Assembly (NCBI GenBank): GCA_000182565.2
Contig: KQ257456.1
DNA: 64,000 nucleotides
Strand: one strand, 5' to 3'
DNA from: Spizellomyces punctatus DAOM BR117
Lineage: Eukaryota
Shown: in pieces, positions 4,409 to 59,741 of the stretch
Layout of the letters: every line of letters starts with the position of its first letter
Numbering within the stretch: position 1 is the stretch's first letter
Program-made: the position numbers and the translations under genes
Notes under the pieces: generated by a model
What the model was told of the DNA's origin: nothing
What the model saw: the letters and a program-made list of their open reading frames with translations, nothing else
The model's database searches: none

Positions 4409-7400
4409 CTACAGGTCAACGGCACGGGGTTCTGTTACCGCAGGAGTTGCCTCGGAACCTTTTGGCTCATTAATGTTGGCAGTGGCATCGTCAGACGAGG
4501 CGGGGTCTTGTACGGAGTTGTCGTGGGGAATATCTGCATTTTGGGTGGGCAGATCGTTCAGGACGGGATCCGTTGCCTTGGTGTCAGCAATAGGTTCAAC
4601 CACGGGTTTGGTAACATGCTGGGTAACAGGTTCGGCAGCAGGCTCCGTAGCATGCTCGGTAGCAGGCTCAGCAACTGGTTGAGCAACAGGCTCAGCGACT
4701 GGTTCAGCAACTGGTTCAACAACTGGTTCAACAACTGGGTCGGCGACAGGTTCGGCGACAGTTGCGGCTGCAGGTTCAGCAACAGGCAGAGCGACAGGCT
4801 CGGCGACAGGCTCGGCGACAAGTTCGGCGACAGCCTCAGCGACCAGTTCAGCAAATGGTTCCGCAACGGGTTCAACAGCAGCTGCGGCGATATTTTCGAT
4901 AACGGGTAGTCCTTCGGCTTCTTTCGGTGCCGAGGCCACTTGCACGTCAAGGTGGGCAGGTTCCTCTTTGACGGTTAAACCGGTTTCGCTGGAAGGTTCG
5001 GTAAGAGTATCTACCGAGCCAGAAACTCCATTTTCCGTTTCTTTAGTCACACCCTCGGTAATAACTTTGGGGTGCTCGACGGGTTCTTCCCCCTTTGTTC
5101 CAGTTTCAACAGGTTTCATCTCTTCTTCGTCTTCGTCGTCCTCATCGTCTGAGGAAGAGGATTCATCTTCATGGTCCTCATCCTTTACGTTCTTTTTCTC
5201 ATCCTCATCCTCCTCTTCGTCGACATCTTCCTCCTTTCCGGCATGTCCAGTTTTGTCATCCGTTTTGTCAGCGTCCCGTTTGGCAGCAGGAGCGTACACA
5301 GCAGCTACTTTCCTCTGAATAGACGCGAGAACGGTTTCATGGCATTTGACCATGGCCTTGGCGGCGCCGTCTCCGCGGGCAAACTCTACAACAGCAGTCA
5401 CGGTTTCATCGGTCTCGGTGTTAGCGGGGAGAATTTCGAGACGCTGCATGTCACCACATCCGGTGAAAAATTCCTTTAGCTCTTGTTGCGTCACAGTTTT
5501 AGGAAGATCGGTAACGTGGATCCGTCGCTGACGAGGGAAGGCAGCACCGAGGGTCTTGGCGGCCACAGCTTTGGCGGCATCCTCAGGATTCTCAAACACC
5601 ACCAGGGCATAGGTAGATGCAACAGTAGCTTGATGATCGGGCTTTTTCAAGATCAAATGGGATTTGACGGGACCGTGTTCAGCAAATTTGGCCATAAAGT
5701 CTTCCGCAGACATATCCGCGGGAACGTCACGCACATGAACGGCATTGCGTGCGGCCCGTTCACGTCGCTGTTTCTGCTTTCGTTCACTGTGCTGATCAAG
5801 CTTTTGAAGCGCTTCGCCCTTCTTCCATGGTTTGTCAACCGGCTGGCGCCGTTCTTTCTTTTCAATGACGCGTGCGTAGTCGACTTTGAGGGGCTCAGAC
5901 ATTCCAAAGAGTTTCTGGTTCTTGATGGCTTCAAATGCACTTTTGGCAATCTCTTCAGTTTGGAAGGAGACAAAGGCATAGGCACGCTTTTCACGCGGTC
6001 GGTTCACGACGTGAAGACGCTTAATCTCTCCGTAAGCGGAGAAGACTTTGTCGAGCTCCGCCTGCAATTATATGATATGGTAAGGAAATGCACGAGACTT
6101 GTAAAGCGAGGATAACAAATCAATGCTCAGTACCTTGTCTGTGCTGAGCGGCATGTTACCAAGATGCAGCGTGCGAAGGTCTAATTTGGCAGGCACATCG
6201 GCAGCGGCGGGTCCTTCCGCACCAGGCTCAGTGACATTTTCACCAGCAGGAGAAGCGTCATCCTTTGCCTTCGCGGATGTCGAATCAGGCTTGGTACCAG
6301 AATCATTGCTCAACACACTACGATCTGCCTTTTCAAAATGCAACCGAAGCTCCAGTGGTTGCATCATTTCAAAAAAGTGCTTCTCCTTGAGCGCTTCTAC
6401 TGCTTTCTGAGCAGAGTTTGGTGTTTCGTAGTCAACGTACGCGTATGCCCTCTGGTGACGTTTAGGTCGTCCAACAATACCAACTGTAATGATGGAGCAA
6501 TAAGTATCGAGGGGCCATAATTAAAACATGAAAGAGTTTGATGCAAACCATTTACAATAGCACCAAATTCGGCAAACACTTCAATGATCTCCCTAACGCG
6601 GACCCATTTGGGGAATCCGTAAATGTAAACACCAGTGGCCTTGGAATTGTCCTTCTCCGTACGAGATGTATCCCTGAGGTGACGGGTGGACTTTTTCCTC
6701 CTCTGTGTTGGCTAATCCAACATGTTCCAACATGAGCAAATGAAAAAAGGAAGGAAACGGCTCAGTCTCTGCTACTAACCACTGCATTCTGTTCCTGGAT
6801 CTCCTCGGGAGATTTCGGAACGCCAGTACCACCAAGAGACTTGTTCACGGCTTCCACCTGTCGACTAAAGAGCCGGCTGGAGGCTTTAGCTAATCCGCGC
6901 CGGGCTTCGTCCGCAACTTTCGGATCCTCAGCTTTAATCTCTGAGGTTTCGGCAGGGTTACCTTTCGAACCTATTGAATGTTTGATTCTTTGTCATAATG
7001 CAATATTCAGAACCTCCGCTGACTGACCTTTAAGATTAGCATTACTCTTCTTGTCCGAACGGAAGCCGCGGTTTTCCTTGTTACCTCTGTGATCGTGCTG
7101 ATCACGAGAGTCATTGTGGAAGCCGCGTGGCCCATTATGACGGCGATCGCCAGATGGCTCGTCCACGTACAGATTGGGACGTTCCGCCAATGCAAAAGCA
7201 GATTTTGCCTTCCGCAGATCACGTCGACCACTTGCAGCATCATTAGTACGATGAGTCGAATTGCCCTGACCGCCCTGTCGCGATGCGGATGGACGTCGAG
7301 CGCCTTTCCCGCGATGACCATCGTCGTCAGGCCTATTGAAATGTACAGCTCGATCCGTTCCAGGAGCAGAAGGTGCTGCTGTGGGGGCAGGGACTGACGA

Positions 7401-8027
7401 GAAATTATTGTGCTGGGAACGTTGCCTCTGGTGCGATCCAGCGGGTCTCCTGCCGTCCCATCCGGCAGTAGCTGGCTGGGGGGCTTCGACAGGCTTTACT
7501 GGGGGAAGAGGATCCCAACCCGCCGGACTCCACCCAGATGAACCGGGCTGCGGCGGCGGTGCGGTAGGAGGGGGAGCTCCCCAACGTTGAGCAGGAGGCT
7601 GCTGAGCGACTGGCTGAGGGACCGGCTGAGGGACTGTTGCCCAGGAGCTAATGACGGCGGTGGTGCCGACGGTTTGTGCACCTGCCCAACCACTTGTATT
7701 CTCGGGGCGACTACTCCAACCAGGCACAGCGTCCCAGTCATCTTTCCTGGACTGATAGACGTTTCCCCAGGAATTTGCCCGGTTTCGTCCCCGATATGAG
7801 TTGTCCAGTTGCGGGGCGGAGGCATAGGCTCCGCTGTTCCATCCATCGTCTCTACGGGGAGGCTGCGACCAGCTAGTAGTGGCAGAGGCAGACGACCAGC
7901 CACCGCTGCTGTGGTTCTGCGGCGGGGTATTGTTCCAGTTGGAGCCTGGAGAAGAAGGGGGAGTGGGACCCCATTGGTTCGTCGTTGGAGGTCGTGTGGA
8001 TTTGCCCCAGGAGCTTCTAGCGTCCAT
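4409..8027 (-). CDS. Multi-RRM RNA-binding protein with N-terminal Trp-rich (GW/WG) disordered region and C-terminal acidic/EPVA-repeat tail
   Basis: RNP motifs LHLGNMP, AYAFVSF, VHVRDVP/YALVVFE and IHVTDLP/TAVVEF in ORFs 4409-6067 and 6068-6367. ORF 6993-8027 is W-rich. The ORFs are joined by GT-AG introns. Confidence 0.85.
4587..4876 (-). repeat. Coding 12-bp minisatellite (EPVA-type tetrapeptide, roughly 24 degenerate units)
   Basis: Protein reads VEPVAEPFAELVAEAVAELVAEPVAEPVALPVAEP...; 12-nt periodicity is visible in the DNA. Confidence 0.9.
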
Positions 8028-9777
8028 GTTGATCCAATGCAGATATTCAAATACTCAAAACAAAAAAAAAAAAAAAAAATGACTAGATGGAGAAAAGAGT
8101 CTTTTAGCGTATCTCTCCGGGAGCGTGGCTTTTCACACCAGGTCCCCCCCCCCAAGCTGTAAACTTTTGAGATCACCAAGATGCTCACTGAGCAAAAGCA
8201 CACTAGGCTACAGGTACTGTCATACACGTGATAAGAGACTCACCAGAAAACTAGACAAGACTACTTTTGACGAAAACCTCCAAAATCCAGATGGGACAAG
8301 AGCAAGTCCCAATCGTCAAAGCCGAAAACCAAAGGTGGGAACGGGACTAAAAAACGCGAGCAGAGTAAAGAAAGCGAGGCGTTTTCGTTGTCGAGTTTAG
8401 TGCTCGCAATCAGTTGCCGTAGAGATTCCCAATGGGATGGGGAGAGTCCTGGCCAGCCTGATGGCAAGATGAGGTAAAAAAAAGGCCAACAAGGTCCTTT
8501 TGCTACAGCAACAACTCTGACAACAGTCCAAACGTCCAACACACACACACACAATGCAGTCTGTGTATTTAGAGGTCCTTTATGGATTTTATAAAAAGAA
8601 GAAGGTTCTGGAGGTCAAAAACCTGTGTTCTTGGGGGGGAATGGAAGAGGAGGAGGAGTGAAACCAAACTCTTTCCCACTGGAGAGAGCAAGGTCGCTGA
8701 AAAAGAGGCTGCTCTTTAAAGCATATCCATTTTATATACTTTTTCTTCTTCTGCCCCCATTTGTGGACACAATGAAAATCCAAACGGCTGAAAAAGAGTG
8801 TGAAAATGGCAAGTGTGAAATATGGCAAATGGGATAGCGCGCGCTAAATTCTTTATGCTTTCTAAAAGGGCAACTTGACCGATTGCCACAAACAAGAATT
8901 GCTTTTTATTTTATTTTGCTTTCATACGCCGTCAACAGTTGAAAGTAACTTTCTCAACAACTCCCCCAGCGGACGTGCCCATTTCATCAACAGCTTTTTA
9001 CCAAGGTGTAATGCAACCTACTTGTTAAGCTGACCTTTTTGACCGCATCCCCTAAATGGACTTTTTGTCCTAACAAAAGAGTCACTTTGCTAAATGTTGT
9101 GAATTTACAATTAGAGAGTGGAAATGTTCAACTGGATGCACACGTAATTTCTCCTGGACATGTCTTTACAGCATCCTCTGCTTCATCGCACACCAAGTAC
9201 AGAAGGTTGTAAGTTTGAACAAATGTCACTCGGCAGTGGCTGTGGCCGTTTGTTTTGTAAGCTTCCCCCTTCTCCTTCCAATGCCATGGAGGATTATTAA
9301 GTGACAGCGTCATAAAGGGGGGAGAATGCGTTGGATGTGTGCTTCCTTGTCATCTCTCTCCTTTCAAAAGACTCTTTTAATCGCGTGATCTGTCAAAACA
9401 CATGATCCCCACATGACTGGATATGATCGGATGCCGTCGCAGTTAGCTGTACGATGCAAATAACACCAACACTCGCTACAGCTCAATGTTCTCGTCCTCC
9501 TCTATGAACGATCGCAACTCGTGCTCGTTGCAAAAAGAGACTGGGGGAGGAACGGGCGGTGCCAGGGTAAAAAAACATCATCCATTCTGGACACGGAAGC
9601 CAAACGCGCGCCAACTGGGCACACTAATTGCAGGGGTTGGATTGAAAGGGGTAGAAGATTCATTCAACACCTTTGTACGGCTGGGGGGGATAATTGAAGG
9701 GGGGGAGTCGTTTTTCCTTTTTTTTATTTTTATTATTGGCCCTGGTGGCCCTCATTTACGAATGCTGTCCTGCGGGT

Positions 9778-9785
9778 TATAAAAG
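9778..9785 (+). promoter_or_regulatory. TATA box of an ORF-less transcription unit
   Basis: GGGTTATAAAAGG followed by a C/T-rich tract, the same context as the TATA upstream of the CBM12-DM9 gene. Confidence 0.55.
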
Positions 9786-9849
9786 GACGACCAGTTCGCT
9801 CTTTCCCCCCCAACCTCCAACACACATCTCGTTGACATCCAAGATCCTT

Positions 9850-9973
9850 GATCACAAAACTTGAACCTGGTTGCCTGGATCTATTATTTTGGCGAGCTCC
9901 TGTTTCTGGCTTTTAGCTCTGGTTGGCTCCCCCATATAATAGGTTCAACGCAACCACGTTTGTGTTGTGAATC
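9850..9973 (+). ncRNA. Candidate pre-miRNA-like long hairpin RNA
   Basis: 9850-9897 pairs with 9926-9973 in about 40 bp, including 3 G-U pairs, about 70 nt downstream of a TATA box. No ATG precedes it. Confidence 0.55.
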
Positions 9974-10298
9974 GTTGTACACAGTTCCTTGTAACATGTC
10001 TGCATACATGTCATGTCCAAGAGTATGCTGTGAGCCAGTCAATTATATTCCAAAACTATGTCTTTACATTGTCGCTGCTCTTTCCATTTCGCACAGGACC
10101 TGACTCATTGCTCCCATTATTTGGGCTCATCCGCAGTACAGCTGTCTTGTCCACAAATTGAAAATTTCTGTATGCAAGTATAGCATCATCTCCTTACAGC
10201 TTCCAAATCCAAGCAGCAGAATCCAAATCCCTAGATACTCCTATCTATATGTACATGTGCCAAAATATTCAAAACCCAACAGTTCGCATAATTCCATT

Positions 10299-11726
10299 CT
10301 AATCCTTTTTTACTGTGACAGAGCGGCTCGTTCTCCGAGTGGGCTCAACAGACTTGCCCCTCGTCGCTCGGGACAAACTTGAACTTGCACCTCTAGTCCG
10401 GCTGGCTGTTACCTTGGCGTCCCGTACTGGAGTCGTTCTCCGTTGAGTTACACTAGATTGCTGCTCACTCTCTGCGCCAGATTCTGCTGTTTCTACATCT
10501 GCATCATCACCACTCGGATCTTCCTTTCCTTGCTTCATTTTAGAAACTTTCTCCATGGCAGATGGTGACAATCTGGTTGTAGAAACTGATCGCTGAATGC
10601 CCCGTCCAAGTCTACCCGATTCCGTCTCGCGATTGATTACTGATCTACTTCGCTGCAATTTGGAGGTCACGCTTCGCGGGAGTGGAGGTCGAGCATCCAC
10701 CTTTGGGGCAGTGTCCAGATCCGTCTTTTCACTTACAGTTGTTGTGGTGGTGCTTGACGCTTCGGACGCTTCGGCTGCAGCGACACTGTTAGAGGAAACG
10801 TCTTCTCGCACGTCCACCGCCGAATCCCGGTGCACCAGTGGGGAAGGTGTCGTACCTAACTTGGCTTCATCGACACTCGGGTACAGTCTTTCTTCAAGCT
10901 CATCGCCTTCATCCTGCCTCTCGGTCACGACTTCTGCCGCCACTGCCGCTGTCTCTGCGGCATCGGTCTTTGGCTGGTTAAAGTTGGCGGTCTCGCTTGC
11001 ATTTACATCATTCTCTTGAGAAGGATGTGCGTCATCCTCCTCGATAATGATAGGTTCCGAGATTGAGGGTCCTTGCAACTGCTACAATCAATAAAAGTGT
11101 AAGCCGCGGATGATCCCTGCAGCTGGACGGGAGGTTAACATTACCGGAAGTCGAGCCGTAACACGGCGAACAATGGTCACAACACGAGTGTGCACAATGG
11201 TCACCGATTCTGTAATGCGTCGTTCGTACTAAATCAAAGCGTTAACCAGCATGAACTCGCCATGTTCCAAGCAGGCAGGTTACATACATGCTCAATATGC
11301 TTTCGCTTGTGGGACAGAACAGGATGGATGACCTTTTTGAATACGGGCATCGTCGTTTTTGTTCGCCCATAGCATAAGGCAAGCAGGAAGAGCAACTTCA
11401 CATTGTAGTAGAATGGAATCCTAAAAAGGTTCCGAGTGAGCGGGACCCTCGGCCGAGGTGGACAAGAGATCACTTACCAGAAAATGGTCCAATCTAATAT
11501 GGGTTCAATAACCTGTAAGGTTAAAAAAGAGAACCATTAAGCAACCAAAGTTTCGACGATGTTGCACTGGAAAAGGGTCGTCACAACACACCTCGAAAAC
11601 CGTAAGCGTTATCCAGAATGAGGCCCAACGCTGCCGTTTCCCAACGTTTGGACGACCTTCCACTGTCTTAAAGGTTGAATACCCGCCCAATGCATAACAG
11701 GCTATTTTCGCCAACGAAACAAACAT
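10299..11726 (-). CDS. TB2/DP1/HVA22 (REEP/Yop1-like) protein with long disordered C-terminus
   Basis: GYSTFKTVE...RWASFWITLTVFE, WTIFW|IPFYYNVKLLFLLAL, PVFKKVIHPVL; four exons. Confidence 0.8.
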
Positions 11727-12088
11727 TGCAATCGAGCGGCTCAAAAACAAAACTTGGACATTTGAAGAGCAACTGCTGCTGCTCGAAACCGGTGGCAAAC
11801 GGTTCACCTTTGGGCTCGGGCATACCCAAGATGGTCATTGACCCAAAAGCGGTGATATTACGCACGTGACCAAGTGGCCCTTCGGACACTGCGCACTTTG
11901 GCACTTGAGCTTTTTCGAGCATCCAGATTGTGGTGATGACCAATTTGGGATATTGTTGAAACCTACCAATTAGCAGCCAGATGGGAACACCACACGGCAA
12001 GTCTACCTATGAAGGCCCGCGGTCTCCAAAAAGCCCCACTCCTTTCCGTCCGATTAGCGGGCAGCTCATCAAGGCTGAGCCACGGTCA

Positions 12089-18434: not shown

Positions 18435-20596
18435 CTACAACCTTTCCTCTGCCTCAGCCTTTTCTGCAGCGGTCTTTTGATTTGGTACTCCCAACGCTCT
18501 TGCCGCGTCCAACATCTCCTTGTCCTCCACATCGAATTTCCTAAAGAGTAGGTAGAATATTACAGTGGAAATGCCTGCAGCAATCGCTGTTCCGGCATAC
18601 ATCCAATGCATGTTAGGGTCCTTGGCAGCTGGGGAAAGGAAGATGCCGATCAACGCGGCACCAGCGTTGGGGAGCAGGGAAAGGGCTGAGATGAGACATT
18701 TCATAGACGTTGGGGCATGGGTATAAGAGTACTCAAGCGAGCCAATGGAGGCAAACACTGTTTTCCAATATACAAACATTTAGCCGCTTAGCCGCGATGT
18801 ATTGGAAATGTTCAGGCGGACAGCTTACCTTCAGAAGTTGCAATCAAGACATACGATGGAATCTGCCACCAGACAGAAATCTCATTTGCGACGTCACCTG
18901 GATGGTCAAATCCGGGGGGTGCCTCGTAAATCTTCTTTTGCACAATTGCGGCTACGGCCATCGACGCGCCACCAAGGAAGAAACCGATTGAAATACGCTT
19001 CATGTATCCAAAGTGGATGTTTTTGCGCGAGAGGTACGGGTATATACCATAGTCAAAAATGGGGATGATCTAGCAGGAGAGAAAATGAGGACTCTATCAA
19101 TGGTTGCCGCTCTTTTCACATGAGATTGATCTACTTACGAGAACCAAGATAAGAGGATCCATAATGTTGATCAAGTCGTTTGACATCCAGCTGGGCCGCT
19201 GCATCTGACTGGCCTGCGAGATCAGGTTGTTGGTCATTTGAGAGTAGCATACCCTGAAATGCCAGCTGATGAGAACATGGTTCGGTTGAATAGCAAAAAG
19301 TCTTTTGGCATACCAGTAAATAGTCAACAAAGGATAGATCGAACACGCCTTGAGCGTCTGCCTCAATTCTGAAGGGAACGCATCCGTCCACTTTCTTTGA
19401 GCCACTTCCTCTTGCGTCTCACCGGGTATAGAGTCGGCGTAATCCAGGAAAGCAAAATTCTTTGAATTTGGTTGAACCGTGGCCTTGTACTTTCGCTTTC
19501 TAACAAGGCTGTACCGAATACATTGATACGCCTTCAAGATCACGGATCCTTCAGGTGGTACATGTACATAACGCTTTCGTCCCGAATAGAAAATGCAGAT
19601 GGAAAGCAGGAACATGCAACTAGGCAAAAGATAGGCCTTCCAAAATGCCGATCGTTCCAAAGTTGTACACACCGTCTGTCCAATCAAAGATCCAATGTTG
19701 ATGGCCCAGTAAAACCAGTTGTACAAATGCTGCACGGTGAGGTCAGGATCAACAATGTACTGCTTTCCATTCTTTTCGATCATGTAAGACTCTTTCGGAA
19801 TCTGGTCCGCACACATTGGGCTGACGACCGATTTGATGCCGCCAGTTCCGAGACCAATAATGGTGATCGAGATGACATAGCCGGGAAAGGCGAAGCCTCC
19901 CCAGGTTGGGGTTCCATCCTCCATGTATCCATTGGGAATCGATGAGGTGCAGAGGATGATCCATCCGACCATGTAAATGATGGAGAAGGTGAGGATGGTT
20001 TTGTATTTTCCCCAATACTGGTCAGCAACGGTGGCGCCAATGAGAGGAGTAAAGTAGGCCCAGAACATGAAATAGCTAAGTGTATGGCACACACAAGTTA
20101 AAACGCGTAAAGTAAACGAGCGGTAAAGGAAAAGGGAACCTTACTTGCTCAAAGCTGTGGCCGTTGATTGTCCCTTGTCAAGCGCTCCTGGCTGTCGCTC
20201 CAATGTGGCCCGCTGAAGTGCGGTTTGCTCTGGGTTTTCAATATAGTTTTGGAAAGTAAGGGAACCACCATAGACTTGTGTACGACAAGCAAGTTAGTCA
20301 TATTATAAACAAATCCTGCTGACAGTCCGAATATACATACACGCAAATCGTTCGCAAAATCTAACAAATAGCAAGAGACAAGAATAATCAGAATCAACTG
20401 AACCTGACAGACATCAACAACATACAAATACTGACTCGTTGACAACAATGAACCACGCTGCAAACGGGATGACGCCGGCAATACGAGGCAACGTAGACTG
20501 CAGGAAACCTTCATCGTGCGGAATGCGCATAATGTGTTCCTGGTCCTTTACGACCTTCGTGTCCAGCGTCCCAGTGCTCTCTTTTGTCTCCGCCAT
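18435..20596 (-). CDS. PTR2: POT/PTR family di/tripeptide transporter
   Basis: NEFCERFAFYGG, GATVADQYWGKYKTI, GLGTGGIKSVVSPMCADQ, FYWAINIGS, WWQIPSY, LEYSYTHAPTSMK. Confidence 0.95.
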
Positions 20597-35298: not shown

Positions 35299-38200
35299 CT
35301 ATGACTTCTCTTCACATGCGGGTCGTGAACCGTCCATGTCCTGTACAATTGGGGGTAGGCCATATCGCTCAAGCACGTCTAGAAGCATGGCTCTTGATAT
35401 CGGCTTGGATAGTGCCTCAGTAACTCCCACACGATGCAAGGCCGCGGGAGACTCAACCTGTGCTAAATGAGCAGTGGTTACCACAATTGGATGTGTGAAG
35501 CCTGCTGTCCGGATCCGGGCAGAAGCTTCCTGGCCACCCATTCCTGGCATTTCAAGGTCCTGCATGATAGAATTTTCAGTTGTCAAAGATAAAACCTCGA
35601 AAGGTTCTACAGATACTTACCATTAGTATGAGAACGTAGCTCGCCCAGTAACATCTCTGCAAAGCTTCAAATCCATTCGTTGCTTCATGCACTTCGTAAC
35701 CAAAGCTTTCTAGCATCTTTGATAGAATATCCCTACTGACACTAGAATCATCCACAACCAGAACTAATTTTCGTCCCGAAGGTATCGTATCGCTCTGTAA
35801 TTCTCTGATAGTCGGTGGTATCCTACCACTATCGGGCGGATCAACATATATGTCCTTAAATTGTGATCCTCCGAGTAGACTGTGTGGAATTGAAAGATTG
35901 GACATTGAGCTGGAAGGTGTCGAAAGAGGGCTTGGCTTCAAGGCGCTAATCGTGTGATTCGCCCCCGGGTAGAGTGTATCAATTGATGGATCTAAAAAGG
36001 TAAACCCTATGAGACTGCGGAGAGATCGTACGGCACTTATCAATGAATATTTACCAAGCTGACGACCGTTCATGCCACCGTTTGCACTTGGTTCAATGAC
36101 TTGAATCGCCGCTGTAGCGGTAAGTCTCCCATCATTTTCCTTAACCTCAGCAACCCGCTGTTGATGTTGACTTCCTTCAGCATCAATCTTGATTCCGTTC
36201 GATGTAGTATCGAGTTTGCGAATACCATAACTCTTCAATATGCTTTCGATCTGTTCTTTGGTAAAGGGCTTCGGCAGCGCATGCGACATGCCGCATTGAC
36301 GCAACTGGGTCAAAGCTTTGGCCTCCTCGCCAGGTACCACGGAGGCTGTTGTTGCAACGATGGGCGCCTGGCAGCCCATGCTTCGAATAGAGCGCGTTGC
36401 TTCGTGACCATCCACCTGTGGCATCATCACTGTTGAGGACAAGATGAGTTTCATAACCACAACCACTAATGTAATTGAGGCACATACAATCCATAAAAAT
36501 GATAGCGTATCGGGTGGTCTTCTCTGCTTCGTACATTTCTATTGCTTCTTGCCCATCAGCAGCTTGATGGATGGGCAGGTCAGTTAATTTAGACAGATGG
36601 CGGCACAATATTCGGCGGTTGATCCCCGAGTCGTCCACAACCATGATGGCTTCTTTGACCGTCTCATAGCTACTATTAGGATATTCGGGATGCTCCCATG
36701 CCGACTTGACAGGTGGAGGTGAAATATTAAGCCCGTTCGAGGTGGATATTTGAGTTGGATCGGATATCTCTGGTACATCTATACATGTTCTGGAAATCTT
36801 GGGTGCATTGGGCGTTCCGGTGTGTCCCATTGGTGCGACCCATCCATTATGTGGTCGAGATGCAGATGGATCGGCATGTCTACTTGGGTCAACATGCAGT
36901 AACGAGCTACTCCTCCTTCTGTCCATCTGTCTACCTATGTTTGTCGAAATCTCTAGTGCTTTTGCTACAAGCGGTTCATTCATGACCTGTTTTGTGAGTG
37001 CTTCAAACCTCAGATCTGAGCTTCCCTGAATGGCACTTCCGTCCTCCAGTACCTCATCAACGACCGTGACCGGTAACGTGAACCTCAAGGTTGTTCCTTG
37101 CCCGAGTACAGTACTGACATGGATGTTACCCCCCATGAGTCTGGAGATTTCGTTCGTGATCGCCAATCCAAGCCCGCTCCCTCCATATTCTCTTGCTCCA
37201 GCTGGATGAAGCGCGTACGGCCGGAAGAGGAGATCGAGCTCGGCGGCAGTCATTCCGGGGCCTGTATCAGACACACTCATTGATAATTGCGTTTTGTCTT
37301 CTGCGTTTGGTATCGGGTTCGCGGATACGTGTACAGTGATGCGAGAATAAGACGGTGCAAACTGAGGAGGGGAATACCTGACACCTCAGCTGCAATACCA
37401 AATCCGACAGAACGAAATTCTGCTCTCGTACCTTGTAAGCATGGCTTATCATATTATTCAGGACCTAAATGACCAAATCCATCGATAATAGGTTCAATTA
37501 TTGTTTGGAAGATGCCAGGTTCATAAACGTACCTGTTGTGTTCTAACTGGATCGACCAAAATGCATTTTGGAACGCTCTCATCCACGATCGTCACAAAGT
37601 TGATGGCATGCTGCCTTACAAGTTCACTTGCCCATGTAAAGGTGTCATTTAGCAAACGTCGGACGTCCACAGGTAGACTGTGAAAATGAAAGTCGCCTTT
37701 CTCGCAGCGTCCCAAATCAAGAGTATCATTGACGAGACTCAGCATGTATTCAGAAGCTAATTTGACTGCCTGGGCTGAACGCTCGACATCGACATCATCG
37801 CCGTCCTTGTTGTCTTGTTCCTTGATACCAGAAGTTGAAACCGTCTCAAGGAGAAATGAACTCATATTCAGGATTGCATGGAGCGGCTATTCCAGTGAAA
37901 AGGTCAGCATGTCGCTTATTAGGTTTTATGCGCGCAGAATATGCAACGTACATTACGCAGCTCATGACAGAGAAAAGCGAGGAAGGCTGATTTGAGTTTA
38001 CTAGTCTGCTGTTCAGTATCACGCAGCTTTGCGGCACATTCCAGTGCTTCTTGCAATTCGCCTGTCCGCTGATCCACTAGCTTCTCTACTGACCTGATCA
38101 CTCGTTGATTTTCCGCCACCACAGCGACGACGTAGAGAGCAGCGAGAATCAGCATTGCGTACCAGAAACGTATTCGCTGCAACGGCTGCATGTGGAACGT

Positions 38201-39214
38201 CGGGCTACCGGGAGGCGGGCCTAAGGGAATGCCGGGAGGAGGTGGTGGTGGCGACGAAGATGAATCGTCCATGTCTCGGTCATTGAAAATGTAAGTACTA
38301 GAAGTTGACAGCGCTATCATTGCCGCCAGCGCTGTTGAACACAGGCCAGGTATGCCAAAGATGACCCCTGCGCACAGCATCAACGGGAAACTCGTAAAGA
38401 CGGAACATTCCACGACAACTCCTAGGTCCGACATTGTCTTTGCGAATACCTCTGGGAGAATGCAGGAAGTCGTAAAGGCCAGCGTAGCGCCAATCACTTC
38501 TATTCGTCGGGAAGATCCACGGTAATGAAATGCCTGCACTTGATCCATGTTCAAACAAGCGGCTAAAGGAGCAAGAACCGCTATTCCAAACCAATCGATC
38601 GGAAAATCTTGTCGGATATTGTTAAATATATTTTGCTCAGGATCGAACTGTTGCTTCAACCATGATCTAGTCAGGGAAGCCAGGCTACATACGAGGGGAC
38701 TCAGCACTGTGAAGACCACTGCTGCCCGAGGGATGTCAAACTGGTACGGCCGGTTTTTAATGAAGCGGAGGAGCACTGCAGCAGCAGCGAGGGACTCCAC
38801 CAAGCCAATTAGGGTATAACCTAGCGCTAAGGCAGCTTGATGTACTCTCCATAGAGCGCCAAAAACTGCTACAAAGTATCCGAAAGGCAACCCAATACGA
38901 ACTCGGCGGTTTGATCGAACAAGCGCACCGATCATGATACCGTTCGGCATCCAAACGGCAGGTTTGGTTCCGATACGAAGCCACAAGGAAAAACAGCCTG
39001 TTCCAAACAGGATGATGGTCCAAATGAATACCTGCCAAGGAGAATGGATGGACCATTGGTTTCCTTCTGCAGTTACGACTTTAGAGGCGATCCAACGCAT
39101 ACAGTGGAATGAATCTTTCTGTCGGTGTCCTCCAAGGTTGCTTCCCTTTGATAGTGCTTGTGGTAATTGCTGCGAGGTCAATCCCTCTTCAAGTCGGCCC
39201 TCCTGGGAAGTCAT
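35299..39214 (-). CDS. Hybrid histidine kinase: MASE1-like membrane sensor, HisKA, HATPase_c and two receiver domains
   Basis: Multi-TM region with WMPNGI; FLCHELRN|PLHAI; DTGPGM; GSGLGLAI; REC1 VVDD..IFMD..PKPF; REC2 VVDD..ILMD..SKPI. Confidence 0.9.
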
Positions 39215-40125
39215 TACAGGCAACGACCCGTTTGCACCACCGGTTGCCTAAGGGGAATCTCGTGCATTGTTCAGAAGTTTATAAATTTGTGGGAGCCTCC
39301 GATCTTCAACCGTCATGGTCAACATCGTGGCGGTAATTGAGGATCTGGTCCTGAAGGTGACCTTAAACCCCGTATTGCTGACTTTGGGTGGATATTGCTG
39401 ACTAATGTGGCTTGCGTTCCTGCGCCACAGTTTTCAGCATAAAAGGTGGACGCCCTCCATCTCCTCCCCGGTTTCTTTTGCTTTACTCGCCCATTAATAT
39501 CCATGCAGCGGCTTCTTTCTTTGGTTGAGCATTTCTGCGGGAAAGATGGGCCAGAGGAAATCATGTCTTTTGATCTTAGCACATTTGCGTTTTTCCACCG
39601 CAGACGTGTTATAGAGAAAGGCACAATATCCTAAGTGGATTCGATTGTGGAAATGGCGCATAGTTTAATGAACGCCTGGGTAGGCTTGCAAGTGTTTAAA
39701 AGGCACTCGCATTAGGGCTACTCTGAAGCGTTGCCTGACACACCTTTGACGGTTGTTTGACATCTTTGGGAAGAACTTAGGCGGCAACAGAGTTTTGTTG
39801 CAATGGGCCTGGGCCGATTTATCATGCTTGGTATCTCCCTGTTTCGTGGTTTCCAATTTTGAACGAAAATCGCACTTTTGGCAAGCCATGAGGAAACCCT
39901 GGCAGAGCACGCACCAAGGGCACCAAGGACAACCACCCGCCGGGAGATATGGAGACCGATCGCATGATTCGTCTTAACGGACATGCAGTACATCTTTCCA
40001 TTTTTTCTCGACATATTTAGCTTATGTAATGTGTGTGGCGCAGCCATGTACCCGACAGCGTTTCACGTCGCCCATCAAACACACAAGGCTCATTCTCTTC
40101 AACGATAGTACATTTCGCAAAAGCA

Positions 40126-58230: not shown

Positions 58231-58301
58231 TGCATTGGCCGAGAATCGAACTCGGGTCTACCGCGTGGCAGGCGGTAATTATGCCACTAAACCACCAATG
58301 C
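58231..58301 (-). tRNA. tRNA-Gly (GCC), intronless
   Basis: GCATTGG..CCAATGCA acceptor stem; anticodon arm ACCGC-CTGCCAC-GCGGT; T-loop GTTCGATT. Confidence 0.97.
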
Positions 58302-59741
58302 TGCTAAAATATAGAAAGACCATATAAACTCTAATGGAAAGACAACGAGAGTCCCTGAGCTTTCTGACTTGGATCCGTTTTTTCCAGGATAGCTTTTACG
58401 GGGCTTCCCCCAACCCTGTAAGCGCGCGGCGGCTTCAACCTCCCTTCAGGGATGTCCTGGGATCTAAATGATGATAAGACACACGGTCAACATCGCTCTG
58501 CGGGTGCAGAAAAGGCGATCTCGCGATTTGTCTTCTTTATAGAACTTGAACTGCCTTTAGTCGTAGGAAAGTGGAAAAATCTTGAATGATGGAAGCGGGC
58601 GTCATTGCAAACGTGTTCATCGTTTTAGGAGTATTAGGTACTATGATCTTTACCTGCGTGCATTCTTTCACGCGCAAGCAGTTTGGTTAGAAAGGAACAC
58701 ATCATGGGATCAACAGTAGGCAAGCGCTTTTGGAATATTAGCCTAAACCTAAGCGGAATCGACGCCCAATAGGCAACGCAACGCCTTGATACCAATATTA
58801 AGTTTCATGCTTCTTTCAAGGCGGGATACATGCCGCCCTCCTTTTCACTTTTGGGCGACGGGGTTGCAAAAAGGGGCCGTTGAATGACCGTCGATTGGGG
58901 CGATCAGCAAACCTCCCTTTACCGCTGATGAAAAGCGGGTCCGAGTCTTTCCGTCTCTTGTTTCAAGAAAATGACATACCTGATGTTCATATGCGAACCA
59001 CAACGGTGCAGACACGCAGCATTTAAAGAAAGACATTGCAAACGTGAGGATGGTAAATGCATGGGGATTTATCAAAGAAGATGCGCATGTTTTTTGGCCC
59101 CAAATCAGTAAAGCCACTGCCGATGACGATTTCAAAAGGACGACACTCAAAACAAGCCCTGCCCGAAGGCAGGTGACCCTTTTCAACTCGACGCTAATTG
59201 GGGGGTTTCTGTGATTCAAGACCGCACGATGGCGTTGGAATTTGGCATCGAAAGCCCTGACCGAAGGGGCTCTTTTATAGAACCCTTCAACTCCACGCCC
59301 TTTCAAGTCATTGGATTCAGAAACGGTCAATCTCGCTTTGCAAGATACGAGGTCTCGGTTTTGTTGGATCCTCGCTACGGAAAATCATCCCTGTCCACGG
59401 TAAAGCAGATCTCAAACCCCCGTCCTCATCTGCAAGCCATGCATCAACTGCTGGCTGCATCGTTGGCAGCAATTGCAAAGCCAAGACAAAAGAAAAAAAG
59501 AAAAAAAAGACAATAATAAATGCAAGGGGTCCAGGGTTGAATTCAGTCTACTAATAAGTTAAAAGCAAAAGAAAACGGAAACTGCCGACGACTACTTTCA
59601 TATCCCCGGCTTGTCTAAATCCATGTCCTCGTTCATTTAACTCCTACCGTATCCTTTGCCACTTTTGAACTTCTTAACCTTTTAGTTCTTTGCCACAAAC
59701 ATCTCGTCGTTTTTGCTTCGTGCAAAAATCCGCTATAAGCA

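Follow-up and report, generated by a model that had tools for sequence, protein, structure and literature searches.

A transcribed, ORF-less hairpin behind a TATA box in a chytrid fungus as a candidate small-RNA precursor

Does the fold-back at 9850-9973 of this Spizellomyces punctatus DNA belong to a small RNA gene, or is it a DNA inverted repeat that can also be folded as RNA? We addressed this question within the window, that is, the whole 64-kb stretch that was analyzed. The original prediction had described a TATA-driven, ORF-less hairpin transcript of an early-diverging fungus and had read it as a precursor of the microRNA kind. Small-RNA genes have hardly been explored in early-diverging fungi, and a compact, expressed locus with a textbook promoter and a Dicer-sized stem offers a test case for hairpin-derived regulatory small RNAs in chytrids. 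Our analysis supports the TATA-driven, ORF-less hairpin transcript, with the strand convention of the read library inferred, and the predicted fold makes it a candidate small-RNA precursor. The locus is composed of the following features:

9778-9785, + strand: TATA box, TATAAAAG (from the sequence; 25-32 nt upstream of the bin in which + oriented reads begin)
9810-9849, + strand: inferred start cluster and short pyrimidine/CA-rich leader lacking an ATG (from read depth)
9850-9897, + strand: 5' arm of the hairpin (from the RNA fold)
9898-9925, + strand: apical region with 8 further predicted pairs, a 3-nt loop and TTTT at 9911-9914 (from the RNA fold and the sequence)
9926-9973, + strand: 3' arm of the hairpin (from the RNA fold)
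9974-10064, + strand: 3' tail, predicted to form another small hairpin and including UA-rich AATTATATT at 10041-10049 (from reads and fold)
10014-11081, - strand: last exon and 3' UTR of a convergent protein gene, stop codon 10299-10301 (from the ORF, its homologue and reads)

Folded as + strand RNA, 9850-9973 reached -44.3 kcal/mol, compared with -26.3 +/- 3.3 kcal/mol for its shuffled counterparts (z = -5.51; dinucleotide shuffles, n = 200). The 130-nt frame 9848-9977 (+) yielded -45.2 kcal/mol (z = -5.64) and a predicted single unbranched stem-loop of 47 pairs, made up of 21 G-C/C-G, 21 A-U/U-A and 5 G-U pairs. The comparison with dinucleotide shuffles that had been proposed as a check thus returned z-scores of -5.5 to -5.6, and not one of the 200 shuffles folded as well. 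We conclude that the hairpin at 9850-9973 is real and beyond chance. With 47 pairs, internal loops of 3x3 at most and z = -5.6, it is the unbranched hairpin with few small bulges that is expected of a precursor. About 39 of the 47 pairs fall within the arms 9850-9897 and 9926-9973, and the arms had been described accurately; the 28-nt loop placed between them in the original prediction is instead predicted to pair further, up to a small apical loop. When the putative transcript was folded as a whole (9815-10064, 250 nt), the hairpin was retained and a small 3' stem-loop was added.

To place the hairpin among other structures, the whole 64 kb was scanned in 3194 folds of 130 nt (step 40, both strands). 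The hairpin at 9850-9973 had the highest pair count of any unbranched hairpin in these folds (47; mean 17.8, sd 8.3) and was the top composition-corrected energy outlier of the window, at -4.18 residual sd with the next locus at -3.5; the scan grid was placed so that one frame centers on this hairpin, which gives it a slight advantage. Compared with shuffles, nine other hairpin-like stretches ranged from z = +0.08 to z = -2.88, and three further outlier stretches gave z = -3.05, -3.14 and -4.00. A strand-specific structured stretch lies about 430 nt upstream of the TATA box, at 9288-9417 (+), with z = -3.14 on the + strand vs. -0.52 on the - strand. In the same region, 9312-9374 (-) gave a sub-threshold match to U6atac (13.2 bits vs. 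a gathering score of 33, E = 2.7), and 9300-9452 had zero reads in the RNA run X7 described below.

The original prediction had further argued that three G-U pairs, which work on the + strand only, favor a selected RNA fold over a DNA inverted repeat. The three G-U pairs inside the arms are present (9863-9961, 9878-9945 and 9880-9943) and turn into C-A mismatches on the opposite strand. As proof of a + strand RNA fold they are weak. None of the three 1x1 mismatches (A/G, C/C and C/C) becomes a wobble pair on the opposite strand and one asymmetric bulge might, so that the asymmetry stands at 3 vs. 0-1, which is not significant (binomial P about 0.13-0.3). The - strand hairpin reached -40.4 kcal/mol with a similar z-score (-5.40), the + strand being better by 3.9 kcal/mol only, and as single-stranded DNA the hairpin gave -20.8 (z = -4.5). 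Because the - strand and single-stranded DNA fold almost as well, the structure could be that of a mere DNA inverted repeat, and structure by itself cannot separate the two. The hairpin was absent from the output of a repeat search with exact 9-nt seeds, because G-U pairs and bulges interrupt the repeat at the DNA level.

The similar folding excess of both strands and of single-stranded DNA, together with the insignificant G-U asymmetry, would suit a neutral inverted repeat that lies by chance behind a TATA-like sequence and is transcribed without selected function; it could have arisen by inverted duplication on the spot or be what remains of a foldback or miniature inverted-repeat transposon. 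The genome offers material for such a reading: passages of PMC10432273 report Spizellomyces punctatus to be rich in short inverted-repeat elements, of which 134 are "ghost" Spu-1 loci, and describe 42 Fanzor loci besides. No second copy of the 27-mer from the 5' arm was found in the 64 kb at up to 3 mismatches, and a blastn-short search of 9810-10060 against the window returned exact 13-mers as its best matches (E = 0.19), with neither a copy nor a complementary target. The flanks of the arms (CCTT before GATC on the 5' side and GTTG after AATC on the 3' side; outer ATCCTT and GTTGTA) share no direct repeat that could represent a target-site duplication. A metagenome scan with a two-motif pattern of the hairpin gave 0 matches.

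The anatomy of ghost Spu-1 elements differs as well. According to the parts of PMC10432273 that describe them, they measure about 550 nt between conserved inverted repeats of 30 nt with a CA motif, and the length of the omega-RNAs is 88-90 nt. Two 13-mers from the hairpin arms were absent from eight supplementary files of that paper (4.76 million characters). No transposase or Fanzor/TnpB-type domain was detected in any of the 43 ORFs scanned (8 + 35). An identity as Fanzor omega-RNA or ghost Spu-1 element was therefore rejected, based on the missing Fanzor-type domain in these ORFs, the different anatomy of the 124-nt fold-back and the absence of its arm 13-mers from the supplements.

Known RNA families were searched with Rfam 15. 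The interval 9790-10110 gave 0 matches at E <= 10, and 9000-11000 gave four chance-level matches, none of them on the hairpin; a snoRNA family match, which the original prediction had named as evidence against itself, did not appear there. ARAGORN found no tRNA in 8000-12000. Inspection of the hairpin RNA by eye revealed no pseudouridylation-pocket loop and no Sm site. Readings as snRNA, snoRNA or tRNA-derived RNA were rejected, as the hairpin is without an Rfam match and 8000-12000 without a tRNA. The sole Rfam match of the window at gathering score is a tRNA gene at 58231-58301 (-), with 62.4 bits.

The protein genes of the window helped to place the locus. A search of 1.84 billion representatives turned up a single relative for the minus-strand ORF 10299-11081. 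It is named as a hypothetical protein of Spizellomyces sp. 'palustris' and is 307 aa long; at 87% identity (E = 3.4e-112), its residues 50-307 align with query residues 1-260 up to the same stop. The statement that the next gene is convergent thus holds, and judged by its homologue this neighbor is a real, conserved gene. In a metagenome scan for the neighbor protein, 462 pattern matches were obtained and 0 were confirmed by tblastn. A PTR2-type ORF at 19097-20140 (-) belongs to the Pfam POT family (E = 5.6e-40), and its best named relatives, at 57% identity, are from the Spizellomycetales chytrids Thoreauomyces humboldtii, Geranomyces michiganensis and G. variabilis. Both proteins bear out the assignment to an early-diverging fungus. 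Antisense to this peptide-transporter ORF, a strong stem is predicted at 19768-19897 (+), with -46.3 kcal/mol, z = -4.0 and 0/200 shuffles as good.

The first 26 kb hold 77 ORFs with 100 codons or more, and 35 of these entered the domain scan; the other 42, dropped by eye, mostly share sequence with an ORF that is longer or was scanned, and some lie beyond 18.8 kb. No Pfam domains were found in the ORFs nearest the hairpin. The 899-aa ORF had no usable match in the protein atlas, and for the RRM ORF nothing but low-complexity matches came out of the protein search. A 442-residue ORF at 37919-39247 (-) matches MASE1, a membrane sensor domain, with 43.6 bits (cut-off 29.8; E = 2.7e-11). MASE1 is a mainly bacterial family, and its presence in a chytrid may deserve attention. 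A run of about 20 A with one C lies at 8060-8080, directly upstream of the start of the minus-strand ORF 6993-8054, on its promoter side.

Expression of the locus was assessed with one RNA run (X7) carrying the same species label, whose protocol and strand convention are unrecorded. From about 6% of the run, 326 reads fell on 9300-10800, and 277 of them were at least 99% alike. Nearly all were first mates, with lengths up to 60 nt; in 293 reads, about 10 letters at the 5' end did not match. Their depth was distributed as follows:

9657-9758, first mate on +: depth 0
9759-9809, first mate on +: depth 0.5
9810-9860, first mate on +: depth 16
9861-9911, first mate on +: depth 18.4
9912-10013, first mate on +: depth 3.2-4.8
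10014-10064, first mate on +: depth 1.4
beyond 10064, first mate on +: depth <=1.5
10014-10064, first mate on -: depth 6.7
10269-10319, first mate on -: depth 49 (peak)
10575-10625, first mate on -: depth about 1
beyond 10625, first mate on -: depth 0

The locus is transcribed, with reads that start about 30 nt past the TATA box and run opposite in direction to those of the convergent gene. Among the read-match starts listed, 9830 (6 reads) and 9839 (5 reads) stand out. The + and - oriented read sets oppose each other and meet near 10014-10064, with low-level overlap (minus depth 0.5-1.3 over 9861-10013, plus depth 0.7-1.5 over 10116-10319). Minus oriented reads extended over both sides of the stop codon at the end of the minus-strand ORF, with a depth of 7-49 at 10014-10421, and beyond 10625 the examined interval (9300-10800) held zero reads on either strand. 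No joints were reported in the X7 reads over 9300-10800. One contig from X1 (877 nt) spans 9505-10381 with zero differences; X8 and X9 contributed no contig, which has no bearing on expression. Low + oriented reads (depth 0.4-1.3) were also seen at 9453-9656, upstream of the TATA box, and the read-free gap 9657-9758 lies between them and the hairpin transcript.

The reads of the neighbor were used to orient those of the hairpin. The minus oriented reads straddle the stop at 10299 and halt 325 nt into the coding region, which is the pattern of a 3'-biased library read in sense, with the mRNA of the neighbor ending near 10014-10064. If the first mate is sense, the + oriented reads come from a + strand RNA, whose sharp 5' edge then lies 25-32 nt past TATAAAAG. 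From the read pattern of the neighbor and the TATA box, the hairpin RNA is probably a + strand transcript.

The reverse arrangement, in which the first mate is antisense, deserves consideration because first mates run against the RNA strand in the majority of stranded libraries. The reads at 9810-9911 would then derive from a minus-strand RNA, and the hairpin, which lies just 326 nt past the stop codon of the neighbor, would sit at the end of its 3' UTR of about 490 nt, before a poly(A) site near 9810-9840. However, the unmatched letters with which reads begin at this sharp edge do not form poly(T), which counts against reads that start at the poly(A) site of a minus-strand RNA. The stop-straddling reads (10014-10574) would moreover require an unannotated + strand RNA ending inside the coding region of the neighbor, and the conserved gene would be left without reads. 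Finally, chance would have to account for the TATA box that precedes the edge by 25-32 nt, an octamer found just twice in 128 kb when both strands are counted. We consider the antisense arrangement quite improbable and return to the + strand transcript.

In line with the original prediction, TATAAAAG lies at 9778-9785 (+), in the orientation of the hairpin. It matches twice in the 64-kb window on both strands (1.21 expected by chance), the other copy being located at 59272-59279 on the minus strand. No similar hairpin accompanies this second copy (z = +0.71, without an Rfam match). Within 59125-59279 (-), the second TATAAAAG precedes short, G+C-rich hairpins that resemble tetraloops, together with a T-run. 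A random repeat would hardly be expected to have a consensus TATA box so well spaced from a sharp read onset, which argues against the neutral inverted repeat introduced above. Together with the single copy in the window and the arm flanks free of direct repeats, it leads us to regard the neutral repeat as unlikely.

The + transcript probably starts within about 9810-9840, as judged from the read onset, and its 3' end probably lies somewhere near 10020-10080. AATTATATT (10041-10049) is situated where both convergent RNAs end, these ends being putative. The TATA box and the 3'-tag-like read pattern point to transcription by Pol II and to polyadenylation. Pol III was considered with regard to the TTTT runs at 9887-9890 and 9911-9914. 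It is unlikely, because reads pass both runs at a depth of 3-5 and show the 3'-tag-like pattern.

As originally stated, no ATG lies between the TATA box and the hairpin. None occurs from the TATA box to 9995, and the first one, at 9996, opens a frame of 35 codons that ends at 10103. This frame makes no convincing ORF, so that the description as ORF-less stands. The hairpin could in principle be the 5' leader that controls translation of this 35-residue peptide, as the first ATG past the TATA box opens exactly that frame. Yet the + reads are down to about 1 by 10014-10064, short of the end of the frame at 10103, which lies beyond most of them. A hairpin of -45 kcal/mol before the ATG would block scanning, and the peptide is without recognizable features. 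Control of a peptide is thus highly improbable, and the sequence supports a transcript that appears to encode no plausible protein.

Taken together, we propose the following chain for the locus. The consensus TATA box at 9778 would drive a + strand transcript from near 9810-9840, which would end roughly 200-270 nt further on, about where the mRNA of the convergent neighbor ends. Half of this transcript would be the imperfect hairpin of about 47 pairs (9850-9973), and the hairpin would be a substrate of the chytrid Dicer, giving rise to hairpin-derived small RNAs that would be loaded into Argonaute. Where Dicer is present, a nuclear transcript with an almost uninterrupted stem of about 47 pairs is an ordinary substrate for it. 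For this reason, an independent short non-coding gene for a hairpin RNA that Dicer would cut into small RNAs (milRNA or hairpin-siRNA type) is the best-supported reading. We hold the chain as a whole tentatively, as quite possible and somewhat short of probable. Processing would be carried out by Dicer alone, as in plants, because fungi are without Drosha and Pasha; as far as the relevant passages of PMC6206976 reach, neither has been found in fungi and their relatives. The parts of PMC9926174 that deal with chytrids state that those examined encode both Dicer and Argonaute. Chytrid Dicers form a clade of their own and some Chytridiomycota are without Dicer, according to passages of PMC12663654.

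The same transcript evidence would also fit a structured RNA that is not diced, for instance one that binds a double-strand-RNA-binding protein, or a cis effect of transcription or termination on the 3' end of the neighbor. The two read sets meet at 10014-10064 with low overlap on each side, and no target was found within the 64-kb window. Against this speak the ordinary suitability of the stem for Dicer, the lack of a match to a known structured family and the fact that no protein-binding motif was identified. We rate an undiced or cis-acting RNA as somewhat unlikely. Within the preferred reading of a diced hairpin transcript, a stricter version would be a genuine chytrid microRNA-like gene, one that is present in single copy, is transcribed by Pol II from a TATA box of its own, has its hairpin cut by Dicer alone to a defined duplex and regulates genes in trans; this version we consider unlikely.

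If confirmed, the locus would represent a known class of RNA gene in an unexplored lineage, and it bears on the question of whether independent miRNA-like genes predate Dikarya in fungi. Hairpin small-RNA precursors are known in Dikarya and plants. Full-text searches of the literature retrieved work on the Dicer and Argonaute genes of chytrids and none on chytrid milRNAs; most subscription journals lie outside the scope of these searches, and the result is not proof of absence. A public sister genome (Spizellomyces sp. 'palustris', about 87% protein identity) is at hand for comparison.

Among known systems, the Fanzor omega-RNAs and ghost Spu-1 elements are closest by host, as they come from the same genus or a close relative and likewise combine a structured small non-coding RNA with inverted repeats. 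Passages of PMC10432273 show the S. punctatus omega-RNA by small-RNA-seq, and the data set exists. The present locus differs from them in size and layout, has no Fanzor/TnpB-type domain among the 43 ORFs scanned, and neither of its two arm 13-mers occurs in the locus files of that paper. A second comparison is offered by the siRNA loci with palindromic transcripts that Drinnenberg et al. reportedly described in 2009 in RNAi-bearing budding yeasts (Naumovozyma castellii). There, as possibly here, the hairpin transcript of an inverted repeat is an endogenous fungal Dicer substrate. The N. castellii loci are mostly longer, repeat-derived and multi-copy, whereas the chytrid unit measures 124 nt and is single-copy within the window.

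The microRNA-like RNAs (milRNAs) of fungi are said to have been first described by Lee et al. in 2010, in Neurospora crassa. Like these, the S. punctatus locus is a fungal, lineage-specific non-coding hairpin transcript that could feed Dicer and Argonaute. It differs in having a chytrid host and in being known from its fold and the reads of one RNA run, rather than from small RNAs, Dicer dependence or Argonaute loading. In plants, MIR genes and hairpin-siRNA loci are transcribed by Pol II as units of their own, with a TATA box and long, imperfect fold-backs. The chytrid locus resembles plant MIR genes in its own TATA promoter, its short non-coding transcript, its long stem with small bulges and the expected Dicer-only processing, and differs from them in its kingdom and in a hairpin without a defined miRNA/miRNA* duplex. 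Should it be a true microRNA-like gene, it would be the first described in Chytridiomycota and would reveal a MIR gene layout like that of plants close to the base of the fungi.
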